This document shows positions 1,734 to 42,703 of a DNA stretch of 43,068 nucleotides, in pieces. The position numbers and the translations under genes are program-made. The notes beneath the pieces are model-generated. The model worked only from the letters and a program-made list of their open reading frames with translations. It did not search any database and was not told the origin of the DNA. Every line of letters begins with the position of its first letter. Within the stretch, counting starts at the first letter, position 1. The DNA comes from a virus: IMG/VR virus record IMGVR_UViG_3300029179_000007, positions 1 through 43,068 of that record. One strand, written 5' to 3'.

Positions 1734-3290
1734 CTAGACTCCTATGTCTATGTCTTCAACTGGTGGTAGCGAATCCAAGGTTCTGTACTGGCCTGTTGCC
1801 GGTACTAGATGCCCTCGGTGCTCCGTTAATACTTGCTTTTGGTAGGCTGGAGCATCTAAGTAGTCGTCACGGTTATCAGAAGAGTTGAGTTTATAGTTGT
1901 TAGCAAAGTATTCAAAGATGACTCTTGGGCCATTAGCTATACCGCAGTTTCCAGCTTGTAGTTCGTCAATGTAGTCGGAGATACGAGATTGCTTTGTTTT
2001 GTTTCTAGTGTGCAATTCAACTACAGTGATCCAACTCAAGTTCAATTTACGTAAGAATGTTTCCATCCAGAAGCATAGCGACTGTTGATAGCCTGTTGAT
2101 TCAATGCCAATGATGGACGCACCTACTCGTAAAGCTTCCATAATAATGTTAACTACGGTAGTTTTAGGATCCCATACTCCGCCTTTAAGCTGTACGCAAA
2201 CAGGAAAGCCATCATAAACTAGATGAGTAGCAATTACGTTATCGTCAGACTTTTTACGGAAGCCAGCAGGGTCAACGGTTAGGAAGGCTGCATCCCATTT
2301 CATCTCTGCATAGTGATCAGAGAGGATAGGTAGAGGAGAAGCTAGCAGTCGATACTTAGAATCTAGTGGATCATTCTGTACTTCTGCAAACCAGATGTGG
2401 CCTAAGCCCATTTGAGCATCATGGCGGTATTCTTTAAATAGCACGGATACTGGCTTAAGTTCAGGCCAAAGAGATTCGCCGTCAGAGAGGATAGCACCAG
2501 TAATAAGAGATAGCCATTCAGAGTTATCTTTAAGCTTCTTAAGCAAGCATTCACCTGGGAACATGTTGCCTAGGAAGATAATACGTCGGTTAGAGCCGAA
2601 GTTGTCGATACATTTAATGAGGGTGGCAACGAACCATTCGATTAGACTAATGTTTTGTACAGGAGATAGCGCAGATTCACGAGATTGAATGTCATCACAA
2701 ATGATTAGATCCGGACGTTTGTTGTTTTCGTTAGCACCACGAACAGCAGAACCAGCGCCCATAGGAAGAAGAATGCGAATCTTGCCATTCATTATGCCTT
2801 TCTTTTTCTTAGCATTGTCTACTGTCTTAGCTGCGGACCAACGACCGTAGATAGCTTCTACTTGAGGTGCAGATAGCATAGCGTCTACGTCATCAATAAA
2901 GGCCATTGCTTTGCCTTCAGTTGCGCAAACTACCATGATGAAGAAGTTGAAGTCGTATACAATAAACCAGACGGTTAGAATTTTAAGGAATGTAGTCTTA
3001 ATGAAGCCACGGGGAAGGCCCAGCGCGAATCGCAAGATAGCGTAAGGATCTTCTGAGCGAGTTGTTAGAGTAGCAAAGATGTCAGAATAGAACTGTGAGA
3101 ATGGAATTCTCATTACCGCAGGTGCAACAATGCCCGCAAAGTAGTTGATGTCATGCCTACCACGAGCAATAGCCTCTTCAGCGTTAGCTTTATAGGTTAT
3201 GCTTTGATGATTGGCTGTGTCATCACTTGCTTTACGGGCACCGATAAACTCTTCTACTGTAGTAAAGTGAGAAGGTTTAGGCTGGCTCAT
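1734..3290 (-). CDS. terL: Terminase large subunit
   Basis: 518 aa. Walker A-like GLPRGFIKTTF, Walker B DLIICDDIQS, nuclease-domain acidic motifs FLTVDPAG / IGIESTGYQ / DDYLDA. AAGGAG lies upstream of the ATG. Confidence 0.9.
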   Translation of the reverse strand: MSQPKPSHFTTVEEFIGARKASDDTANHQSITYKANAEEAIARGRHDINYFAGIVAPAVMRIPFSQFYSDIFATLTTRSEDPYAILRFALGLPRGFIKTTFLKILTVWFIVYDFNFFIMVVCATEGKAMAFIDDVDAMLSAPQVEAIYGRWSAAKTVDNAKKKKGIMNGKIRILLPMGAGSAVRGANENNKRPDLIICDDIQSRESALSPVQNISLIEWFVATLIKCIDNFGSNRRIIFLGNMFPGECLLKKLKDNSEWLSLITGAILSDGESLWPELKPVSVLFKEYRHDAQMGLGHIWFAEVQNDPLDSKYRLLASPLPILSDHYAEMKWDAAFLTVDPAGFRKKSDDNVIATHLVYDGFPVCVQLKGGVWDPKTTVVNIIMEALRVGASIIGIESTGYQQSLCFWMETFLRKLNLSWITVVELHTRNKTKQSRISDYIDELQAGNCGIANGPRVIFEYFANNYKLNSSDNRDDYLDAPAYQKQVLTEHRGHLVPATGQYRTLDSLPPVEDIDIGV

Positions 3291-3392
3291 GCTGCTTGTT
3301 TCTCCTTAGTAGCTCCTTTCAGAGCTGTGGGCAAAAAAGACACTTTGTTAGCCTGAAAGAAAGCGGCAGCAGCGGCCATGGTCTTAGTAGCT

Positions 3393-3971
3393 TCAGTACT
3401 GTAATGCTGTTTCATGTTGAGATTCTCCTTCGATTGGAGGCATTGCCTCGGCTTCTAACATCTTTTGTAGTGAACTAGCTGGCATAGGAGTAGTAGAGCG
3501 AGAGCCAATAGCAATGATCTCAGAATTAGGACCAATAGTAAGCTCTGGAGCGCAGATAGCCGGCATAGTAATTTCTACAATCTTCATAGTCATCTGACCT
3601 TGACCAGAAATAAGAGGATTCTGAATAGCCTTAGTAGCAGCTTCACGGCGGAAAGCATCATTTTTAATAGTGTTAAGAGTAGCAAGAGCAAGAATAAGTT
3701 CTCTACCAGCAAGCATTCCTGATTCAATCTGAGTTTGAAGTTGATCCATGGCAGCATGTTCTATGCCGATCATTTTATCCTTGGCAACTTCATCAGAAGA
3801 CTGAGGAGCTTCAGTAGCTTGTTGTTCAGCAAGTTCTTTTAGCGCAGCTTTAAAGTCCTGGTCTTGTAGTAACTGGCTAATGTAGGACTTCGACACGCCT
3901 ACTACGGAAGCAACAAGAGCAGGATTCATGCCTCCTACTAATAGCTGAGCAATGCGGTCGATTTTGGTCAT
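3393..3971 (-). CDS. terS: Putative terminase small subunit (N-terminal HTH)
   Basis: MTKIDRIAQLLVGGMNPALVASVVGVSKSYISQLL is a helix-turn-helix. The gene sits immediately upstream of terL. ATG 3971 is preferred over the track's TTG at 4055, which has no SD. Confidence 0.6.
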   Translation of the reverse strand: MTKIDRIAQLLVGGMNPALVASVVGVSKSYISQLLQDQDFKAALKELAEQQATEAPQSSDEVAKDKMIGIEHAAMDQLQTQIESGMLAGRELILALATLNTIKNDAFRREAATKAIQNPLISGQGQMTMKIVEITMPAICAPELTIGPNSEIIAIGSRSTTPMPASSLQKMLEAEAMPPIEGESQHETALQY

Positions 3972-4070: not shown

Positions 4071-4114
4071 TAGACTAATCTTTAGGAGTTAGACTAATCT
4101 TGAAGTTTAGGAGT
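4071..4114. repeat. Tandem direct repeat: tagactaatct+ttaggagt (4071-4089), then tagactaatct+tgaagt+ttaggagt (4090-4114)
   Basis: Read directly. Located in the divergent control region about 100-140 nt upstream of the terS ATG. Confidence 0.85.
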
Positions 4115-4132
4115 CTAGTATTGGTAAAAAGT

Positions 4133-4161
4133 TTAGAAAATTTTTTGGGATTGCTTATGAT
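4133..4161 (+). promoter_or_regulatory. Weak sigma70-like promoter candidate (TTAGAA-17-TATGAT) overlapping an A/T-tract+GGGA+TTGC motif
   Basis: Hexamers and spacing read by eye. The A4T6GGGATTGC motif resembles those at 6805-6820 and 15558-15574. Confidence 0.3.
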
Positions 4162-4336
4162 ACTAGCCCAGCGCCGCAGGCAAAAAGGCCCGCACTCCCC
4201 CTACTGAATTGGATGCGAATGCGAATAGGAATCAGTATCATTATCGTTAGCATTAGCTGCTAGGATTGATAGGCATTAGCAGGTGAGTTAGCCTAAGCTC
4301 AGCCGTTTTGAAGCCGACGAACGGTCATTAATTCTA

Positions 4337-4364
4337 TTGACAGTCTAGGCTATTGTGCTAATCT
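4337..4364 (+). promoter_or_regulatory. Early sigma70-type promoter (TTGACA-16-TAATCT with TGc extended -10)
   Basis: Consensus -35 TTGACA at 4337-4342 and tgcTAATCT at 4356-4364, about 40 nt upstream of the first plus-strand ORF. Confidence 0.6.
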
Positions 4365-4400
4365 TACTAACAGAAAGGCAAACAACTAACGAGGTGAAAC

Positions 4401-4565
4401 ATGGGCACTAGGTCGAGCGTACAAGCCAACCTGATTAGTCGATTCCGCGTGGTTACTGGCGCAAGCGTGGAGGATGCTTACTGTTATTTAGAAGCAGAGG
4501 AATGGGATTTAGATGATGCGCTAATCTCTTGGCGTGCTGATAGCTATTTGAGAGAAGCGAGTTAA
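4401..4565 (+). CDS. 54-aa early protein with a UBA-like / EF-Ts N-terminal (TS-N)-like domain. Too short for the ORF track.
   Basis: GAGGTG SD lies 5 nt before ATG 4401. Translation: MGTRSSVQANLISRFRVVTGASVEDAYCYLEAEEWDLDDALISWRADSYLREAS. The pattern F-x2-VTGA-x4-A-x2-Y-L-E-x3-WDL-x2-AL is typical of UBA-like domains. Confidence 0.6.
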   Translation: MGTRSSVQANLISRFRVVTGASVEDAYCYLEAEEWDLDDALISWRADSYLREAS

Positions 4566-4607
4566 TTAGTCTTGGCCTTATGTAGTCTAACATTTTTTAT
4601 AAATGAC

Positions 4608-4636
4608 TTGACTACATAGGGGCGATCACTGATAAT
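4608..4636 (+). promoter_or_regulatory. Strong sigma70-type promoter (TTGACT-17-GATAAT)
   Basis: Hexamers at 4608-4613 and 4631-4636 with a 17-nt spacer, 55 nt upstream of ATG 4691. Confidence 0.65.
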
Positions 4637-4690: not shown

Positions 4691-5305
4691 ATGTCTCAAG
4701 GTACTATGATCGTCAGCACTGTTAGCGAACTTAAAGATGGCGCCCGTAAAGCTATCGGCTCCTATTCGTTCTACCTGCCGACTCTGGCTGAATTCGGTAT
4801 TCAGGCCGAAGCTAAGCCGGTGTATGAAGGCGAAGGCGAGGAAAAGCAGATTGTAGGCTATGAGTATGAAGGCAATGCTCTTAATTTCCTCGGTAAAGCA
4901 GTAGACGCAGCAGTACGCGCGATGGCCCGTAATAAGCTGCTGCCTAAGTCTGCAACTCTGCGTCCCGGTGCTAAGATGCCGGAAAACTTCCTTGAAGTTA
5001 TTACGCCCGGCGAAGGCCGTGGAGGCTCTGCTGTACTGGCTGAACGTCATGCACTGTTCGCAGCGTGGACTGCGTTTGTTAATGGTCTGGAGCGTCCTGA
5101 AAACGTCAAGAAGCTGCTGATTCTGTTTGTTAAGACTCCTGACGCTCTGCTTACTCAGCCGGAAAAGATCAAAACCACTACCGAGGCGCTGGTAACTCAG
5201 TTTGCTACTGCTGCTGCTGAAGCTGGTAGCCTTACCGAGTGGCAAGCTAATCACCTGAATGGCGTGATTGAGAATTGCGCTGAGAATGGTGAAGCCGGCT
5301 GGTAA
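4691..5305 (+). CDS. 204-aa early protein of unknown function, apparently highly expressed
   Basis: AGGA SD, dedicated promoter and terminator. Codon usage (ctg, cgt, ggc, gct) resembles the capsid gene. I recognise no motif. Confidence 0.8.
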   Translation: MSQGTMIVSTVSELKDGARKAIGSYSFYLPTLAEFGIQAEAKPVYEGEGEEKQIVGYEYEGNALNFLGKAVDAAVRAMARNKLLPKSATLRPGAKMPENFLEVITPGEGRGGSAVLAERHALFAAWTAFVNGLERPENVKKLLILFVKTPDALLTQPEKIKTTTEALVTQFATAAAEAGSLTEWQANHLNGVIENCAENGEAGW

Positions 5306-6941: not shown

Positions 6942-8009
6942 ATGGACATTAATCTAGTATACGCAATCAAAGAAGTAGCCTCTGGTGGCTTTACTACTAA
7001 GCATAAGCACAATGCTACTAAGCGCAAAGATTGGGCGCCTATTACTAAGAAAGCCGAAGCTATAGGCCGGCAATTAGAAATTAGGACCGAAGCAGAAGCT
7101 ACTGTAATCTGTCCTATTAGTGGCTTGATCGTTCCTTCTGACTTGCCGCCTACTGATAACGCTTTCCTAGTATGCGCGCATCCTATCGTATTTAATGCAC
7201 TAGCAATTATTGATAGTAACGAATACGTTAATAAGCTCAGCGAATCGCAATTGGCTGGCCTTATTCTAGCAATGCTGCACACTCTAGGTAAAGGTAGTAT
7301 TAGTCCTAAGTCTAGCGCCTTTGCAGTTAATGTTAGAATGCAGGCTCTCTTTAAGAAAGAGGAACTGTTAGAGTTTGCAGCATGGATATTCGATAACCTA
7401 GGCCGTACTAACGCCTATTATCCTCCTATTGAACTGTCGCATGAAACCATGCACAAAGGCACCTTCTTAGAATATACTAATTGGGTAGCCAATCTTAGTA
7501 CTGACTTCCTAGTGAGTGGCGTAGAAGAACGAATTATTAAGCCCACAACTCCTAGCACAGAAGTACAGATTAAACGTCTTGATAGCGCAGCTTATGATGA
7601 ATGGCTGGACATGGCTTCTAAGCTGACGCTTCCAAAGTCTTTTGTAGATAAGGCCAAGCCCTATATTAAGAAGCTGGTCAGTACTACTAATGACGACTTG
7701 ATTAATAAGATTTGCAGCAAAGTAGAAGCATTGGCTAAAGATGAAGCCGGAACGATTGGCCTAATAGACTCCACAGAATATCTTGAAATGGCAGCAGTAG
7801 GAGAGATATTCACATTAGAAGTCATGGCCATGCGTAAGAAAGCCGACAAGTTAGGCTACTATAAAGCGCAATTGGATGAATGGGATGCTCCTATTAGTGT
7901 TACTATTGCTTCCACTGGTAGCGTAGAACCTGCACCAGTAGTCAAAGCCGAAGTCGAAAAACCGAAAAAGGTTAATTTCCTAGACCTGCTTAAGAAGAAA
8001 GGGGCTTAA
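6942..8009 (+). CDS. Hypothetical replication-arm protein (355 aa from ATG 6942; the track ORF starts at TTG 6810)
   Basis: The promoter at 6817-6845 lies inside the track ORF. The first in-frame start after the predicted TSS is ATG 6942, with AGGA 8 nt upstream. The C-terminus is ...KPKKVNFLDLLKKKGA. Confidence 0.7.
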   Translation: MDINLVYAIKEVASGGFTTKHKHNATKRKDWAPITKKAEAIGRQLEIRTEAEATVICPISGLIVPSDLPPTDNAFLVCAHPIVFNALAIIDSNEYVNKLSESQLAGLILAMLHTLGKGSISPKSSAFAVNVRMQALFKKEELLEFAAWIFDNLGRTNAYYPPIELSHETMHKGTFLEYTNWVANLSTDFLVSGVEERIIKPTTPSTEVQIKRLDSAAYDEWLDMASKLTLPKSFVDKAKPYIKKLVSTTNDDLINKICSKVEALAKDEAGTIGLIDSTEYLEMAAVGEIFTLEVMAMRKKADKLGYYKAQLDEWDAPISVTIASTGSVEPAPVVKAEVEKPKKVNFLDLLKKKGA

Positions 8010-8010
8010 T

Positions 8011-8325
8011 ATGAACGCTGAATTTAAGCTCAGTAAGGTTAGAAAGCATCCCGAGTTTATTAAAGGCTTCTGTGCTAGTAGCACTATTCGCAAAGGACAG
8101 AAGGTTGTAGTAATTGACGGGCAAACTTGGCAATTACAACTAACAAAAGAACTAGAGGACGCTTTTGATAATCACGGCTTTAATAGTGTAATGTGCATTA
8201 TCAGTTGCCAGACTTATAAGCCTAAAGATAGTAAACCACGATTAATCGCTGTAGCCAAGCCGCACTACTATTCTTCTTACTACACTGCTCTGCGCGAATC
8301 CTACAATGGGAGAATCACAGTATGA
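8011..8325 (+). CDS. Hypothetical protein (104 aa)
   Basis: ATG lies 1 nt after the upstream stop. SD-like AAAGGGG. Confidence 0.7.
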   Translation: MNAEFKLSKVRKHPEFIKGFCASSTIRKGQKVVVIDGQTWQLQLTKELEDAFDNHGFNSVMCIISCQTYKPKDSKPRLIAVAKPHYYSSYYTALRESYNGRITV

Positions 8326-23380: not shown

Positions 23381-26300
23381 TTAGTCAAGGTCATCAACTA
23401 GGAGCATCAAAGGCGAATCACCGAAACGATTATGCAAATCTACCAGACGATCATTAGAGTTCTCCAAGAAAGCCTGATTGACTGCTTGCCGGAATCCTTG
23501 CGGCGTGCCAGTACGAAGGTAGCTAGTAGCCAATTCATCCATGAGATCATCGTTAAGGTTGTTTGCACGAATAGCAGTACGCATACGCTCTAGTACAGCT
23601 TGCTTAGCTTCACGATCAAGAGAGCCATAGTAAGAGTTAAGGTGGATGGATTCTCGAACCTTCGCTTCACTCAACGGGCGCGTGCTCATAACGCGGCTCA
23701 GGATGCCTTGCCAGGACCACACTTCTTCCGGTCCTGCAATCGTATTCCCTGGACCAGTCACGCTATATCCGCTTGCCAGCTCGCTTAAACGCGCCACTGG
23801 ACGGCTCACGGATTGCGTGGAGAGCGCCTCGAAAAACGCCTGTCCTGCGTTGCCATCTTGTTGCAGAACGCTTTTGCCCACTTCAACCATACTACCAATG
23901 ACTTGGCCTACCATCGAAGGTGCGACCATAGTATCAAAGCCCGTAGGAATACGAGGGTTTACGTCACCGCGTGTGTGAACAGCAGGACCAAGGTTAGACG
24001 GTAAGCCATACAGCAGCACACTAGCTGCGTCGTCACCTATGGCACGGTAGGTTCCAGTATACAAGTCGTAGTTTTCATCAGAGAAGTGATTACCAATAGC
24101 TTGAGAAATAGGCTGGAAGCCAGGCAATGATCCTACGCCAAAGATACCAGCTTGTGCTAGCATGGTCTGGCCAAGACCTTTATAGTCTTTAAGATCAAGA
24201 TGGCGATACATGTTCTGAGCATAGGTTAGCATATAAGTTTGGAACAAGCCCATAGCTGCGCCTAGTGAACCTTGGAACATCATGGGCCTCTGAGCAGTAG
24301 AGTAATTGCCCAGTGCTTGCTTCATGTAGTCCCTGGCATAAATCAGCACTTGACGATCACTAGCAGCGTTTCCGTAGATGCGTTTAGCTAATTCCACACC
24401 TGTACCGAAAGCGGCCTTTCGTACTAGCCCTTCAGCAAGTTCAGAAGGTTTAGACATAATCTTAACAAAATTAGAATCAAGAGCTTTTTCAAGGTTAGCA
24501 ATAGCACCAGTAGAAAAGCGAGACATCTTCATTACTTCATCTACTTCAGAAAGAATAGGCTCAAGCAGACCTTCTTCGTCAGCCATTTGGAACAAGCGTA
24601 CGTTAACAGCATCCTTAGAGTTCATGCGCCGAATACCATTGTACATAATAGACAAAGAATTACCGTTCAACATTTGATTAGCGTTTTGAATGTTAGTTGC
24701 TTTAATTGCACGGTTGATAGTAGAAGTAGAGAGAATAGGCAGAGACAGCATGTTTACTAGAGGTTGCGCAATTTCACCAAACTTCAATGCGAGCATAGAG
24801 GCCATTTCGTTACCAGCTCGTACTACACGATTAGGGTCAGTAATACCGGCATTGCGAGCACGCTGTAGCAGGAGAGGTTTAGCAGCATCATTAAAGGCAG
24901 CATACGGATCAGGAATATTCATAGCTTTACGAGCAGCTTCATACTTATCCCAGTCCATAGTATCGCCGTCTTTAACAAGATTAGCACCTTGGCGAGCAAC
25001 TTGGAAAGCTTTACCTACTGCTTCAATAGCAAATTGGATACCAGTATCTACAGGCTTATTAAATGCTTGCATAAGTTCAGAACGATACGCAGGATTACGG
25101 CCAAGCAGAATATCTTTAATATCAGCAGCAGTGTCCTTAGTCTGAGCTTGCTTAACCGTACGCATGAAGCCGGTTTTATTTGTATCAGTCAGAGGCTTCT
25201 GAGCTTGAGCACTAAGATAGTCCAGCTTCTTCATCAAGTCAAATGAACCGTACTCAACCATAGCAATAGTCTGAGCATTGAAACGATCACGGAAACCTTC
25301 AATAATATCAGACAGACGTTGAGGAGACAAGTCAGGAGCAGCAAGACCAATACCGCGCTTTTGCATACCCACGTTAGCAGCAGTAACCATCTCAAGATCA
25401 TCCTGCATCATAGCCAAGCGTTCATTACTAACTTCAGTACGGAAACGAATTACTTCATCAGGCCCGGCATTATAAGCTTTAGCAAGATCTTGCAGACCTT
25501 CATAAGTATCAGCAACAAGAAGCTTTTGAGTGTTATCAGAAGTGTTAAGTACGAAAGCATATTCTTTGTTTTTAAGATTAGTGTAAGGCATCCAAATACC
25601 AATAGAAGCAGGACGAGGTTTACCAGAAAGACGATTGACTACAGTTTGAGTTTCATATACTTCATTAGCTGCCTTTTCAATAGCTTGCAAAGCCCGATGC
25701 ACTTCATCATGCTTGACCACCATATCAGTAATAGGCTTAGGATTCTTCAGTGCGCCAGTAGTAGTATCCAGAGTACCAGTGACAAAAGTACGAGCTTCAG
25801 AATCATAGCGAATTAGACCCTTATTACTGAGACGAAGATTATCAAAGATAGCAAATTCGGTACGAGCAGCGTCATTAGTATACAGAGTACGGAAGGCGGA
25901 TGCTACAGGATCAATAAAAGCTTTTTCAATTTGGTTAGCTACATGGACTCGTTTATCGCCTAGTGCAGTAACAAGACGACCAATCTCACCCATGTTAGAA
26001 GTAATCATATCAGCAGATTGGAACAGTGGATTACCGCCTTTAGAGTTATTGAATTGAGCAAGACCTTCACGAAGTGCTTTGTATTCACCAGCATTAAGAA
26101 TTTCTTTAAGGGCAGAAGCAGCAGTAGCAGACTTACTACCTAGTACAGAAGTCTCAACCCAGAGTTTGTTGATAGTAGCATACTGTTCGTCAATAGCATT
26201 AAGTTTAGCAGAGAGATGCATAGCATAAGTAGTATCACCTTCGTTAAGAGCACGCTTAATACGACGATCAAGAATAGCTTCACCACGAAGTTCGGCACGA

Positions 26301-28942
26301 TGCTTATCAAGAATATCACCAGTCTCGCCAACAATTTGCTGCTTGTTAGCAGTAATATGCATGATACGACGAGCAGGACTAAGAGCTTCTCCAACTTGTT
26401 CTTCAGTATTCCAGCGGTTAACTCGAGAATTAAGTTCAGCGTACGGTACGTCACCATTAGCCATATCAATAAAAGCACTACGATTAGAAGCAGCCAGTTG
26501 TACCATCTCAGGGGTAGTATTAAATTTAATAGCAGCTACTTCAGCTTTCATGCCACCTTTAATAGCTTCGTTAATAGCTTCACCTTTAATACGCAGATGT
26601 TCCATAGCAAGTTCTTGGTGATCAAGTTCAGCAAACTTAACTTTACTTACAGGCAGCTTTTGCTTATCTACAAACTTAGCAGCACCAGCCGGAAGCTTAT
26701 CTACCATATCACGAGTACTAGCACCAATCAACCATTCAGCTTCGCCACGATAGATATAGCCAATCACATCATCAAGATTAACTTTATAAGTATGAGGAGT
26801 ACCAAAAAGAGAAGCTACTCGATCATTAAAAGTATAGGAAGAAACAGAAGTGTCACCGTTAGGTTGAGTTTTAGTACCACGTTTAATATAGATATTGCCT
26901 TTGGCATCAGAGTGCGCACCAAGAGCTTTCTTTTGCTGACGAACAAGCGGAGAGTTAAGAATGTTAGTAATAGCATCAGCTTCTGGGGTATTGTTAGACA
27001 TACCACGACGGAGAGTACGAGCACTAGCCATAGCATTACGGAAGTGTTCTTTATCTTGCGCGTGGCCGCCAATCCAGCGAGCGAGGAACAGAATAGCTTC
27101 AGAGTTAAGTTGAGCTTCGTCATTAGCATACTTGCTAAGAGAGTAATGATTGTCACGAGCGTACTGTTTAGCATATTGCTCCATTTTACGAGGAGCTACA
27201 CTATGCCAGTCGTCACGAATAAGATTACCCTTAGCTGCTTCTTCTTTACGAACAAAGTCATAGAAACGATTAGATTCATTTTGGAAGCTATTGAAATCGT
27301 ACTCGTCTTTAATAAGAGGTTTAATTACGCCGGTCTTAATGTCATTATTAATATCAGCAAAATGAGTAGGCTTAACATAATTAACTGGGTCAATAGCAGC
27401 AGTAGGCAGATCAGTAACTTCTTCCATGTTAACGAGTTTGTATTTCTCGTCTTCATAGAGTTTGATTTTAGTATTAGTAAGAGTAATGTAGTCTTCAGTA
27501 GCTTTAGCCAAAGCTTTAGGATCAGATTGAGGATTTTGAATAATCTCTTGTAAGCTAACTTTGCGTCTGTCTACAGCAGATAGCCAGCCGTTGATAGCCG
27601 CATAGTCAGTAGCAAACAGTTCAGTAGCAGCAAGCTTATCAGTTGACAAAGAAGAGTAGTATTTAAGACCAGCAAGATATTCCATCTCGACATCACCAGT
27701 ACGGCTAAGGTCGAAGTTCTTAGCAAAAGAGTTAGTGACAGCTTTATAAGAGAAGCGTTTAAGAGTAGCGTCTACTGCCTTGGGACCATTAACATCCGCA
27801 GCAGTAGTAATAAGGTTAGCATTAAGTTTATTGTCAACGAACGCATCGAATTCAGGAGAATAGAAAGAATTACGAACGAATTGATCTTCGTCTTTTACAA
27901 GGTCACGTTTTTTGAAGATTGGCATATTACCAAGTTTAGGACCTTCATCTACGTTCAGTTCACCAATGTTGAGAGGCTTATAGAATTTAACTTTATCAGT
28001 ACCAAGGAAACGGAGATCAGTAAAGCGGCTAGCAATAGCATTTTTAACTTCAGTAGACAGTGTGCTCATTTCAGGAGACATCTTACTAGCAGCAAGCTCT
28101 CCCATGCGTACTCGCATATTCTGAGCCATGTCAGTAGCGATCTGCTTAGTAAGACCATTATAGTCAGGAAGTTTAGCCATAGTCTCAAGACGACTAGCAG
28201 CAAGATTAAGATGAGCTAGAGTGGCAGAAGTATCAGCATAAGCTACATCAAATACTTTAACGTTCTGGCGTACTGTCTCCAGAGCATCAGTGGTTACTCG
28301 TCCGCCTACAGCTTTAAGTTCAGCATGAGAAATAAGACCAGTAATACCAGCACCAATACCACCGCCGATAGCCATACTAATCCCAAAGTTCTTAACGGGA
28401 TCTTCCATATAGTCTTCCATGTACGGGTGCGCACTAAAGGTCCCCATAATGGCAAGTTCGGTAGCAGCAGTATCCATCAGGTTATTAGCTTGACTACGCA
28501 AAAACATAGCATTACGAACTTTCTTATACTCTGCAGTACCTTTTAAGCCATCAGCAATAAGCGATTCATACTTAGCGAGATCTTCAACTTGACGAGCAGG
28601 AGAAAGAAAAGAAGTACCTTTAAGTCCAGCACGAACACCACGAGCTAGCTTAAGTGCAGCACCTCCAGGAATCAGCATACCACCAATAAAAGACATAGCT
28701 TGTACTACGTCCTTGTTATTGTTGTATGCTGACAGAGCGCCAGTAGCACCCATATCCTGAAGGAGCTTACGAGTGGACACTTCCATACCAGTAGCTTCAG
28801 GAACAATGGAGTTCCAAATGGTAGTGCCCACATCTACAACAGCAGCCGCAGTAGTATTGAAAGCTTTCTCAACAAAGTTCTGGCTAGCATAGTCCAGGCT
28901 ACTGGCCATAGAAACTGTGTTGATATCCCCAAGATTAATCAT
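23381..28942 (-). CDS. Giant internal virion / DNA-ejection-type protein (1853 aa)
   Basis: Last gene of the late operon, after two other internal-protein-like genes (T7 gp14-16-like layout). Gly-rich hydrophobic segments (GISMAIGGGIGAGITGL). I saw no enzymatic motif. Confidence 0.55.
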   Translation of the reverse strand: MINLGDINTVSMASSLDYASQNFVEKAFNTTAAAVVDVGTTIWNSIVPEATGMEVSTRKLLQDMGATGALSAYNNNKDVVQAMSFIGGMLIPGGAALKLARGVRAGLKGTSFLSPARQVEDLAKYESLIADGLKGTAEYKKVRNAMFLRSQANNLMDTAATELAIMGTFSAHPYMEDYMEDPVKNFGISMAIGGGIGAGITGLISHAELKAVGGRVTTDALETVRQNVKVFDVAYADTSATLAHLNLAASRLETMAKLPDYNGLTKQIATDMAQNMRVRMGELAASKMSPEMSTLSTEVKNAIASRFTDLRFLGTDKVKFYKPLNIGELNVDEGPKLGNMPIFKKRDLVKDEDQFVRNSFYSPEFDAFVDNKLNANLITTAADVNGPKAVDATLKRFSYKAVTNSFAKNFDLSRTGDVEMEYLAGLKYYSSLSTDKLAATELFATDYAAINGWLSAVDRRKVSLQEIIQNPQSDPKALAKATEDYITLTNTKIKLYEDEKYKLVNMEEVTDLPTAAIDPVNYVKPTHFADINNDIKTGVIKPLIKDEYDFNSFQNESNRFYDFVRKEEAAKGNLIRDDWHSVAPRKMEQYAKQYARDNHYSLSKYANDEAQLNSEAILFLARWIGGHAQDKEHFRNAMASARTLRRGMSNNTPEADAITNILNSPLVRQQKKALGAHSDAKGNIYIKRGTKTQPNGDTSVSSYTFNDRVASLFGTPHTYKVNLDDVIGYIYRGEAEWLIGASTRDMVDKLPAGAAKFVDKQKLPVSKVKFAELDHQELAMEHLRIKGEAINEAIKGGMKAEVAAIKFNTTPEMVQLAASNRSAFIDMANGDVPYAELNSRVNRWNTEEQVGEALSPARRIMHITANKQQIVGETGDILDKHRAELRGEAILDRRIKRALNEGDTTYAMHLSAKLNAIDEQYATINKLWVETSVLGSKSATAASALKEILNAGEYKALREGLAQFNNSKGGNPLFQSADMITSNMGEIGRLVTALGDKRVHVANQIEKAFIDPVASAFRTLYTNDAARTEFAIFDNLRLSNKGLIRYDSEARTFVTGTLDTTTGALKNPKPITDMVVKHDEVHRALQAIEKAANEVYETQTVVNRLSGKPRPASIGIWMPYTNLKNKEYAFVLNTSDNTQKLLVADTYEGLQDLAKAYNAGPDEVIRFRTEVSNERLAMMQDDLEMVTAANVGMQKRGIGLAAPDLSPQRLSDIIEGFRDRFNAQTIAMVEYGSFDLMKKLDYLSAQAQKPLTDTNKTGFMRTVKQAQTKDTAADIKDILLGRNPAYRSELMQAFNKPVDTGIQFAIEAVGKAFQVARQGANLVKDGDTMDWDKYEAARKAMNIPDPYAAFNDAAKPLLLQRARNAGITDPNRVVRAGNEMASMLALKFGEIAQPLVNMLSLPILSTSTINRAIKATNIQNANQMLNGNSLSIMYNGIRRMNSKDAVNVRLFQMADEEGLLEPILSEVDEVMKMSRFSTGAIANLEKALDSNFVKIMSKPSELAEGLVRKAAFGTGVELAKRIYGNAASDRQVLIYARDYMKQALGNYSTAQRPMMFQGSLGAAMGLFQTYMLTYAQNMYRHLDLKDYKGLGQTMLAQAGIFGVGSLPGFQPISQAIGNHFSDENYDLYTGTYRAIGDDAASVLLYGLPSNLGPAVHTRGDVNPRIPTGFDTMVAPSMVGQVIGSMVEVGKSVLQQDGNAGQAFFEALSTQSVSRPVARLSELASGYSVTGPGNTIAGPEEVWSWQGILSRVMSTRPLSEAKVRESIHLNSYYGSLDREAKQAVLERMRTAIRANNLNDDLMDELATSYLRTGTPQGFRQAVNQAFLENSNDRLVDLHNRFGDSPLMLLVDDLD

Positions 28943-42139: not shown

Positions 42140-42703
42140 CTACTGTCTTAGCAGTCTAGCGTGAATAGCATCGACTGCTTCCTTGATCTTTCCTTCTTTA
42201 AGATAGAGTACAGCGTCACGATCGTCCTCTGCGAGTTCATTAGTAATCTTGTGACCAGTTTCGAGCTTAGAGTTTATGAGCCAATCGGGGCGCAACTTGA
42301 ATACTATACCGTCGTTACGACGAATCCAAGCGGCCTCATTCTCAGCTCGTACATCAGTAATGATCATAGTAGTAAAAGGATATTCAGCTTTAACGTCTTC
42401 GTAGTATTTAGCAAGGATAGTTACCCAGAAGTCAGTATGAATCATCTCACGACCAAAATCAGTACCAAGCTTTTCTAGGAAGTTACGACGAGTGCCAAGC
42501 TCTTCTCTGTTAAGTACAAATTCTTGCTTAGCACCATGCGTCATAGTGATGTGAAATGCTGGATCTACTACAGCAGCCATGCGATAGAGAGGAAGCGCGA
42601 ATTTACTAATGATCGAGTTAGAGATCGTCTCAGCTAGTGCACTACCAAGAGTGTCTTTACCGCTACTATAGGGACCATGAAAACCGACTATCTTAGGAAT
42701 CAT
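42140..42703 (-). CDS. Deoxynucleoside monophosphate kinase-like P-loop kinase
   Basis: N-terminal P-loop IVGFHGPYSSGKDTLG, as in phage dNMP kinases. ATGA overlap with the portal stop. Confidence 0.65.
   Translation of the reverse strand: MIPKIVGFHGPYSSGKDTLGSALAETISNSIISKFALPLYRMAAVVDPAFHITMTHGAKQEFVLNREELGTRRNFLEKLGTDFGREMIHTDFWVTILAKYYEDVKAEYPFTTMIITDVRAENEAAWIRRNDGIVFKLRPDWLINSKLETGHKITNELAEDDRDAVLYLKEGKIKEAVDAIHARLLRQ

Follow-up and report, generated by a model that had tools for sequence, protein, structure and literature searches.

The 43,068-nt stretch of viral DNA analysed here (positions 1 to 43,068 of the IMG/VR record IMGVR_UViG_3300029179_000007, called the window throughout) carries on its plus strand a very short gene whose product is a complete, stand-alone UBA-like domain. 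This open reading frame (ORF) starts with an ATG at position 4401, ends with its stop codon at position 4565 and encodes an acidic protein of 54 amino acids (aa), MGTRSSVQANLISRFRVVTGASVEDAYCYLEAEEWDLDDALISWRADSYLREAS, with a net charge of -5. Its coordinates and translation agree with those given in a preliminary description of the locus that had been made from the letters alone. The ORF forms the right-hand border of a divergent intergenic region of ~430 bp. Leftward of this region, on the minus strand, lie the small terminase gene terS (phrog_16503, probable start at 3971), a 42-aa ORF and the large terminase gene terL. Rightward, on the plus strand, genes for a helicase, a PD-(D/E)XK nuclease and a family-A DNA polymerase follow in a block that extends to ~22.7 kb. 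By position, the UBA-like gene is the first gene of this rightward, replication-side early block, as had been proposed, and the next early gene (4691-5305, plus strand) encodes a 204-aa protein of phrog_15550, a homologue of PaMx41 gp01. Among 50,697 phage records, megablast found no DNA-level match to the region, and the phage was therefore placed by protein comparison only: TerL is 58% identical to its counterparts in Pseudomonas phages PaMx41, 119X and PaP2 (Fredfastierviridae, Jamesmcgillvirus; podoviruses of ~43 kb) and 44% identical to that of Polaromonas phage Tiera. The G+C content of the window is 43%.

The 54-aa protein was matched over residues 11-42 by the Pfam family UBA_4 (PF14555) with 28.8 bits against a gathering cut-off of 21.8 (E=1.1e-6), and matches to UBA_8 and TAP_C fell below their respective Pfam thresholds. 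UBA_4 also matched 33 of 35 family members individually, the best with E=4.3e-10. A profile of the family, compared with the PDB, retrieved the UBA domain of p47/NSFL1C (1v92) with E=3e-7, followed by OTUD7A, DCN1, Mex67, FAF1/UBXD and TDP2. The gapless alignment to the p47 domain that the preliminary description had given was reproduced by BLASTP with the human protein (15/36 positions identical, 42%), and pairwise profile comparison using hhalign assigned p47 a probability of 94%. The segment YLEAEEWDLDDAL, aligned with p47, fits the UBA_4 signature LE...W(D/N)(L/I)..A, which runs from helix 2 through the loop into helix 3. AlphaFold2, supplied with the family alignment, predicted a compact three-helix bundle (residues 6-19, 23-32 and 37-53) with a predicted local distance difference test score (pLDDT) of 87, the UBA-like core spanning residues 11-47 (nt 4431-4541). 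When this model was compared with the PDB using Foldseek, almost all of the 50 listed neighbours were UBA, UBA-like, NAC or elongation factor Ts (EF-Ts) N-terminal domains, with template modelling (TM) scores of ~0.6-0.8, probabilities of 0.72-1.0 and E-values of 0.17 or worse, the latter being uninformative for so small a domain. We conclude that the protein is a UBA-like domain of the UBA_4 type, related at a greater distance, within one superfamily, to the EF-Ts N-terminal domain; the profile and structure comparisons thereby bear out the UBA-like/EF-Ts-N-like fold initially suggested. NCBIfam holds no family for the protein. The best non-phage matches of the 54-aa query were plant-type proteins with 3-4 tandem UBA-like repeats (P0017, P0021, P0025 and P0028; E=1e-7 to 1e-4). 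A 1313-aa repeat protein, P0016, was discarded as a false positive driven by its repeated SVSLVRVHAGLSASDTYCY segment.

Close homologues were recovered from 5.8 billion proteins as 15 clusters at 62-98% identity, all of 46-54 aa. The DNA of one 42-kb JGI metagenome contig (L001) is nearly identical to that of the window, and look-ups of exact proteins provided DNA for three further lineages (L004-6, L012-15 and L016-18). Syntenic orthologues were found in L001, L002, L004-6 and L012-18, flanked in every case by terS and the 204-aa phrog_15550 gene. Pairwise ratios of non-synonymous to synonymous substitution (dN/dS, Nei-Gojobori) ranged from 0.12 to 0.28, with synonymous sites near saturation (proportion of synonymous differences, pS, 0.58-0.83), and this pattern indicates a real gene under purifying selection. 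Pattern scans of IMG/VR and JGI metagenome contigs with the family alignment yielded nothing confirmable, a weak negative since both an exact match to one degenerate peptide pattern and a tblastn match at E<=1e-3 with a query of only 54 aa were required. The L004 locus (8001-8300) is 92% identical to the window up to ~4495, in the middle of the gene, and then continues with a different helix-3/C-terminal allele, SNWNIERAFYDWRMDQRRRAKLCGC; it also has ~130 extra bases ahead of a conserved hairpin described below. The N-W-N allele type of L004 recurs in P0012, P0013, P0032-35 and P0037. The switch in mid-gene points to two allelic types of helix 3 and to a recombination breakpoint inside the UBA-like gene.

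Beyond these close relatives, a HMMER search of 1.84 billion representatives added two small proteins (P0027 and P0029) beside plant-type multi-UBA proteins, and two further profile searches enlarged the family to >60 clusters (15 close and >45 more), all of 39-133 aa. Fusions to known domains, sought among these relatives by a Rosetta-stone approach, were not found. The members share the signature A..YL(E/D)AEEW(D)..(D/E)A(V/L).S(Y/W)(R/K).D and a core that is acidic throughout, with a mean charge of -5.3 over ~37 residues. As judged by profile comparison, the family corresponds to phrog_16325, which is catalogued without an assigned function: the window protein matched it with E=5e-4, P0045, P0027, P0048, P0040 and P0051 with E=4.5e-11 to 4e-5, and gp03 of the Pseudomonas Pbunavirus SN with E=5.7e-31. 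The latter protein, MTKQAKILSVAKLAVVTEEVAKAYLEAEEWLVDEAVYTIKAERKAGLL, also reached an hhalign probability of 97.5% against our family profile, and 30 Pseudomonas Pbunavirus records list the gene as a 'hypothetical protein'. Further small phage proteins of UBA-like fold are present in BFVD, one of them, 59 aa long and from Sinorhizobium phage phiN3, having been deposited under the name 'Elongation factor Ts-like protein'. The statement in the preliminary description that such a module is undescribed thus stands as regards the literature, where our searches found no paper on a stand-alone phage UBA-like family, and needs amending as regards databases, where the family already exists in these anonymous or loosely named forms.

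In an exact-motif scan of 185,579 species genomes, made with a narrower family alignment, one locus was confirmed; either cellular genomes seldom contain the family or the pattern was overly stringent. A tblastn search with the 79-aa subfamily found no cultured phage. Distant relatives of 95-100 aa were noted at L022 (9001-9294; Burkholderia cenocepacia GCA_018146015.1) and in P0071-P0074. These proteins have a Gly in place of the invariant Trp (AELDAEEGNTADAV) as well as a C-terminal extension, and their genes adjoin DUF6876 and ParA-like genes on an apparent mobile element with an MmeI-type restriction-modification gene.

With regard to the persistence of the gene in relatives, to which the preliminary description had attached weight, the outcome is divided. 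All close metagenomic relatives keep the UBA-like gene; the cultured relatives PaMx41, 119X and PaP2 lack it and have other small genes in its place, which indicates an accessory rather than a core gene. In PaMx41, three unrelated small genes (gp04-gp02) occupy the same slot ahead of gp01, the phrog_15550 homologue. A second instance of this layout is provided by the Pbunaviruses. In Pbunavirus PA4, whose record is circular, a run of 17 small genes (gp03-gp01, then gp92-gp78 in SN numbering) lies behind a sigma-70-like promoter (TTTACT-17 nt-CATAAT) and diverges from the large terminase gene; the homologue opens this run. The promoter region beside the large terminase gene is common to 291 Pbunavirus records, of which only 23-30 carry the 48-aa UBA-like gene of the SN gp03 type; the first-gene slot behind this shared promoter is polymorphic (reference locus L021, Pseudomonas phage PA4, MZ285878.1, 6826-7147). 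The gene therefore holds the first position of an early block in two unrelated phage groups, in a slot whose content can be swapped. Elsewhere it follows genes for an Enc34-type single-stranded DNA-binding protein (L007) or a Rad52-like protein (L010/11), precedes RecT/YqaJ in a lambdoid early-left operon (P0063), directly precedes a putative Mu-type transposase gene (L009) or belongs to a run of small genes (L008). Across these five unrelated contexts we looked for a shared neighbour gene or a two-gene module and found none, which makes a fixed phage-encoded partner unlikely.

Ahead of the ORF we read a putative early promoter, P1 (4337-4364, plus strand), composed of a -35 box TTGACA (4337-4342), a 16-nt spacer and a -10 box TAATCT (4359-4364). 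The 'consensus promoter' of the preliminary description is accurate for the -35 box, the only full consensus element; the -10 box keeps 3/6 consensus positions (T1, A2 and T6), and the spacer ends in TGTGC, giving an extended -10 TG (TGTGC-TAATCT). P1 was not listed by our promoter consensus scan because the latter needs 4/6 matches in each hexamer. The arrangement TTGAC(A/T)-16 nt-TAATCT with TGTGC is kept in 4/4 lineages with DNA (window/L001, L004, L016 and L012), even in the divergent L012, whose remaining intergenic sequence no longer aligns. The reported Shine-Dalgarno sequence GAGGTG is indeed present at 4391-4396 (plus strand), 4-5 nt before the ATG, and similar purine runs lie at the same place in L004 (GGGGG), L012 (TAGGAG) and L016 (AAGGG). 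A second promoter, P2 (TTGACT-17 nt-GATAAT, 4608-4636, plus strand; 10/12 matches in the consensus scan), is conserved in all lineages and would serve the next early gene at 4691-5305. Since P2 follows directly after the UBA-like gene, the latter would form a separate, effectively monocistronic unit. Directly 3' of its stop codon, repeat search and RNA folding identified an inverted repeat (4576-4621; arms CCTTATGTAGTC / GACTACATAGGG) with a 12-bp stem and a 22-nt loop, whose predicted RNA fold has an energy of -37.7 kcal/mol (z=-5.6). This hairpin has no U-tract, its right arm includes the -35 box of P2, and across the four lineages its arms are invariant and its loop variable. As the arms never vary, covariation cannot decide its role; the hairpin may stabilise the 3' end of the P1 transcript, mark a site for its processing or act as an operator of P2.

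Several other motifs occur in the same intergenic region. The octamer CTAATCTT is present in 8 copies in the window against 2.95 expected, a number reached in 0/100 shuffles. Three of the copies are in the divergent terS/early intergenic region (4075-4082, 4094-4101 and 4358-4365) and the 5 others elsewhere in the window; one copy coincides with the P1 -10 element and two lie within a 12-nt direct repeat, TAGACTAATCTT. The octamer may be a phage-specific promoter or regulator motif. The block TATGATAC...CAAAAAGGCCCGCACTCCCCC (4156-4201) is invariant even in L012, where other intergenic sequence does not align, and overlaps a promoter-like match, TTTAGA-18 nt-TATGAT (4132-4161). This block may represent an additional promoter or leader farther upstream, or else provide a signal to the leftward late/packaging genes. 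Positions 4205-4300, which separate the two conserved blocks, contain GAATGC-type hexamer units (~4213-4235) and copies of GCATTAGC / GTTAGC(A/C)TTAGCT (4246-4299), most of this interval being missing in L012; the repeats are candidate regulator binding sites or a candidate packaging signal beside terS.

What such a protein might do can be approached from its size, charge and position. Every UBA-like domain characterised to our knowledge is a protein-binding module and not an enzyme, and the length of the window protein and of its relatives, together with the lack of any fused known domain, likewise argues for a binding module. The consistently acidic core makes DNA binding unlikely, and a DNA-binding regulator was ruled out on this ground and on that of the net charge of -5. 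We favour, with a probability of roughly 0.55, the reading that the UBA-like protein is a stoichiometric binder of a host protein which would serve host takeover or counter-defence. P1, as the first rightward sigma-70-type promoter, would be read by the host RNA polymerase as soon as the DNA enters the cell. Its product would have no enzymatic activity of its own and would work as a stoichiometric binder: through the conserved helix 2-loop-helix 3 face (YLEAEEWD..DA..SW/Y-R-x-D), it would attach to a host protein, thereby blocking or diverting the latter. The protein would accordingly be an accessory takeover or counter-defence factor and not an essential phage function. A host-directed binder is the most economical reading of slots that are swappable and of a gene that is dispensable within phage groups keeping their whole replication and morphogenesis programme.

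Several observations weigh against this reading. We infer early expression from promoter logic only, the protein-binding mode by analogy with the characterised UBA-like domains, and presume that the partner is a host rather than a phage protein. The conserved YLEAEEW motif is partly an ascertainment effect, as the large protein search retrieves its matches through shared 5-residue words and so inflates the apparent conservation. The close relatives P0012, P0013 and P0035 carry AN/SN-W-N, not EE-W-D, and the acidic loop is hence not strictly required. As to anti-defence, gp80-88 of phage 14-1 form an experimentally defined anti-defence island (bioRxiv 10.64898/2026.06.18.732992). The 17-gene block of PA4/SN appears to include this island, by gene numbering alone and with equivalence of SN and 14-1 assumed. 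The mapped island excludes the UBA-like gene, and phage 14-1 does not have it; the link to anti-defence is guilt by position only.

Among other explanations, the one that survives best is a role inside the phage programme, in which the protein would be an adaptor or regulator that binds a phage protein, for instance in the replication/recombination module or in an early-to-middle switch. The recombination and replication genes beside which several unrelated phages place the gene (RecT/YqaJ, Rad52-like, Enc34 single-stranded DNA-binding protein, SNF2 and the putative Mu-type transposase) favour such a role, and the conserved hairpin and separate promoter suggest regulated expression. These contexts, however, have no neighbour protein in common, and the gene is dispensable in groups that retain all replication genes (the PaMx41 group and ~90% of the Pbunaviruses). 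We therefore regard a phage-internal partner as unlikely, albeit as the most credible of the alternatives.

The preliminary description had named EF-Tu as a possible target, and we examined this idea through the resemblance to EF-Ts. The free domain would in this case mimic the EF-Ts N-terminal domain and dock on the G domain (helix D) of host EF-Tu, where it would either be a competitor of EF-Ts or L7/L12 or protect EF-Tu against defences by which the latter is cleaved or recruited (Lit, type IV Thoeris caspase, Avs7). In favour of this explanation, EF-Tu has been recognised as a hub in phage defence (PMC13581612). The fold is the same: 12/50 of the top Foldseek neighbours were EF-Ts chains (TM 0.65-0.73, 25-29% identity). 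The alignment is gapless, as had been claimed, and at the same time weak, with hhalign probabilities of 74% for Thermus thermophilus EF-Ts and 28% for Escherichia coli EF-Ts. The EF-Ts N-terminal domain is, as far as is known, the main representative of the UBA-like fold in bacteria, so that EF-Ts would be a plausible donor. The T. thermophilus sequence ALEDAGWDEEKAV comes close to YL(E/D)AEEWD(E)EDAV (36% identity), Arg16 of the window protein is aligned with EF-Ts Arg12, and the phiN3 protein of UBA-like fold had been annotated 'Elongation factor Ts-like'. The sequence match to EF-Ts nevertheless does not reach significance in database searches (1aip_C, E=0.52 in the PDB profile search and 0.11 with a broader profile), whereas matches to eukaryotic UBA_4 domains such as that of p47 do; the NCBIfam EF-Ts models did not match the window protein. 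The EF-Ts signature GAGMMDCKK reads GASVEDAYC in the window protein (segment TGASVEDAYCYL), so that both Met-Met and Lys-Lys are replaced, at positions that are polar or variable across the family. In the Kawashima 1996 structure and the mutagenesis work of Spremulli and of Wieden, these residues reportedly face helix D of EF-Tu. The phage domain is acidic, as is, presumably, helix D itself, whose sequence we take to be DDEELLELVEMEVRELL. Only the close clade conserves the aligned Arg. Moreover, the window protein ends at residue 54 without the EF-Ts core/dimerisation domains, and no relative exceeds 133 aa. An accessory gene in ~10% of Pbunaviruses also fits a strain-specific target better than a universal one. 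We found no supporting evidence for EF-Tu as the target, and the comparison of sequences mildly disfavours the idea, which we consider improbable.

A ubiquitin-like protein (Ubl) has also to be considered as the partner. The domain could be a receptor or decoy that binds a beta-grasp Ubl, or the E1/E2 enzymes, of Bil/Bub or Cap2-type conjugation, the latter belonging to cyclic oligonucleotide-based antiphage signalling systems (CBASS), and thereby blocks conjugation to phage targets. By sequence, it is nearest to genuine ubiquitin-binding UBA or UBA-like domains (p47, DCN1, FAF1, TDP2, OTUD7A), and the gene is early by position, accessory and swappable, as expected for counter-defence genes. 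Phages of the PaMx41 group are reported to be targets of a conjugation-assisted CBASS in P. aeruginosa. Against these points, UBA_4-type domains do not have the canonical MGF/Y ubiquitin-binding loop (TGAS in the window protein), and our literature search found no paper linking UBA-like domains with anti-phage Ubl systems. The family, furthermore, is spread over many unrelated phages, whereas Bil/Bub systems are rare. Such a decoy function appears to us very improbable. Lastly, a non-functional ORF arising by chance in the leader region, with a compositional domain match, or a mere leader peptide, might be suspected from the very short length and from the absence of the ORF from a length-filtered ORF track, but is essentially excluded by the conservation pattern of >60 homologous clusters and constrained substitution, by the Pfam score above its gathering threshold, by the confident fold and by the conserved promoter and Shine-Dalgarno sequence.

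Some further features of the window are of note. The 42-aa ORF between the small and large terminase genes (3287-3415, minus strand) is called in all related contigs (L001, L002, L004-6 and L013), and its positional counterpart in PaMx41 is gp06; it constitutes a second conserved micro-gene of the kind that a length-filtered ORF track would miss. Among the structural genes, a 187-aa ORF (42140-42703, minus strand) has an equal-length counterpart in L001 that carries the Pfam domain DNMK (deoxynucleotide monophosphate kinase). A 666-aa gene downstream of terL in the related contigs, probably encoding the portal protein as judged by its position in PaMx41, appears to span the ends of the window; the window consequently seems to be a complete genome, circularly closed or permuted, with the cut falling within this gene. 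The leftward structural block has at its distal end a 1853-aa ORF (23381-28942, minus strand), which is of very large size for a podovirus of 43 kb.

UBA-like domains are regarded as modules of the eukaryotic ubiquitin system. The domain kind was already known, as was the phage family in the form of an anonymous PHROG. What is new is that this family is recognised as a bona fide UBA_4-type domain, that the domain is here a complete protein rather than a module, and that two unrelated phage groups have a member of the family as their first early gene. Complete acidic UBA-like proteins thus make up a sizeable phage family that is under purifying selection and stands at the very start of the early programme in two Pseudomonas-type groups, in slots where genes are swapped in and out as is typical of host-takeover and counter-defence genes. 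Cultured and genetically tractable members are available in gp03 of the P. aeruginosa Pbunaviruses SN, JG024, NP3 and PA4, so that the question of which partner a UBA-like fold has in ubiquitin-free cells becomes directly testable. Were the partner a Ubl, UBA-Ubl recognition would be at work, and contested, already in the conflicts of viruses with prokaryotic hosts; were it an ordinary protein, the outcome would be one more annotated small early gene.

Compared with known systems, the window protein shares with p47/NSFL1C and the other UBA_4 domains (DCN1, FAF1/UBXD, OTUD7A and TDP2) the three-helix bundle and the signature F..(V)TGA...A..(Y/F)LE...W(D/N)(L/I)..A(L/V).S(F/W/Y)..D. These eukaryotic domains are N-terminal modules of large proteins of the ubiquitin/NEDD8 systems, whereas the window protein is complete at 54 aa, much more acidic, and encoded by a phage whose host has no ubiquitin. 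It may derive from a eukaryotic UBA_4 domain or from an ancient bacterial or phage lineage, two origins between which a domain of this length does not discriminate. With the EF-Ts N-terminal domain it has in common the fold, the length, the TGA turn, the (A/Y)L pair, the (G/W)D at the start of helix 3 and the helix 3 Ala, and T. thermophilus EF-Ts carries LEDAGWDEEKAV, which resembles the phage family motif; the two differ by opposite charges in helix 2 and by the Met-Met/Lys-Lys residues found only in EF-Ts. An analogy of role only can be drawn with Ocr (gp0.3) of phage T7, which is the first gene transcribed by the host RNA polymerase and whose product is small, acidic, non-enzymatic, dispensable and host-directed. 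Unlike the window protein, Ocr is a DNA mimic of unrelated fold and size and of far higher charge density, and nothing indicates DNA mimicry or anti-restriction activity in the UBA-like protein. A further counterpart is gp03 of the Pbunaviruses SN, JG024, NP3 and PA4, a homologue (43% identity to the window protein) of the same size with the YLEAEEW motif, in which the TG turn is lost (VVTEEVA) and whose scores are below the Pfam thresholds. Its carrier is a myovirus with a genome otherwise unrelated to that of the window phage; its gene, like the one at 4401-4565, is the first after a sigma-70-like promoter, divergent from terminase, and polymorphic for presence or absence.

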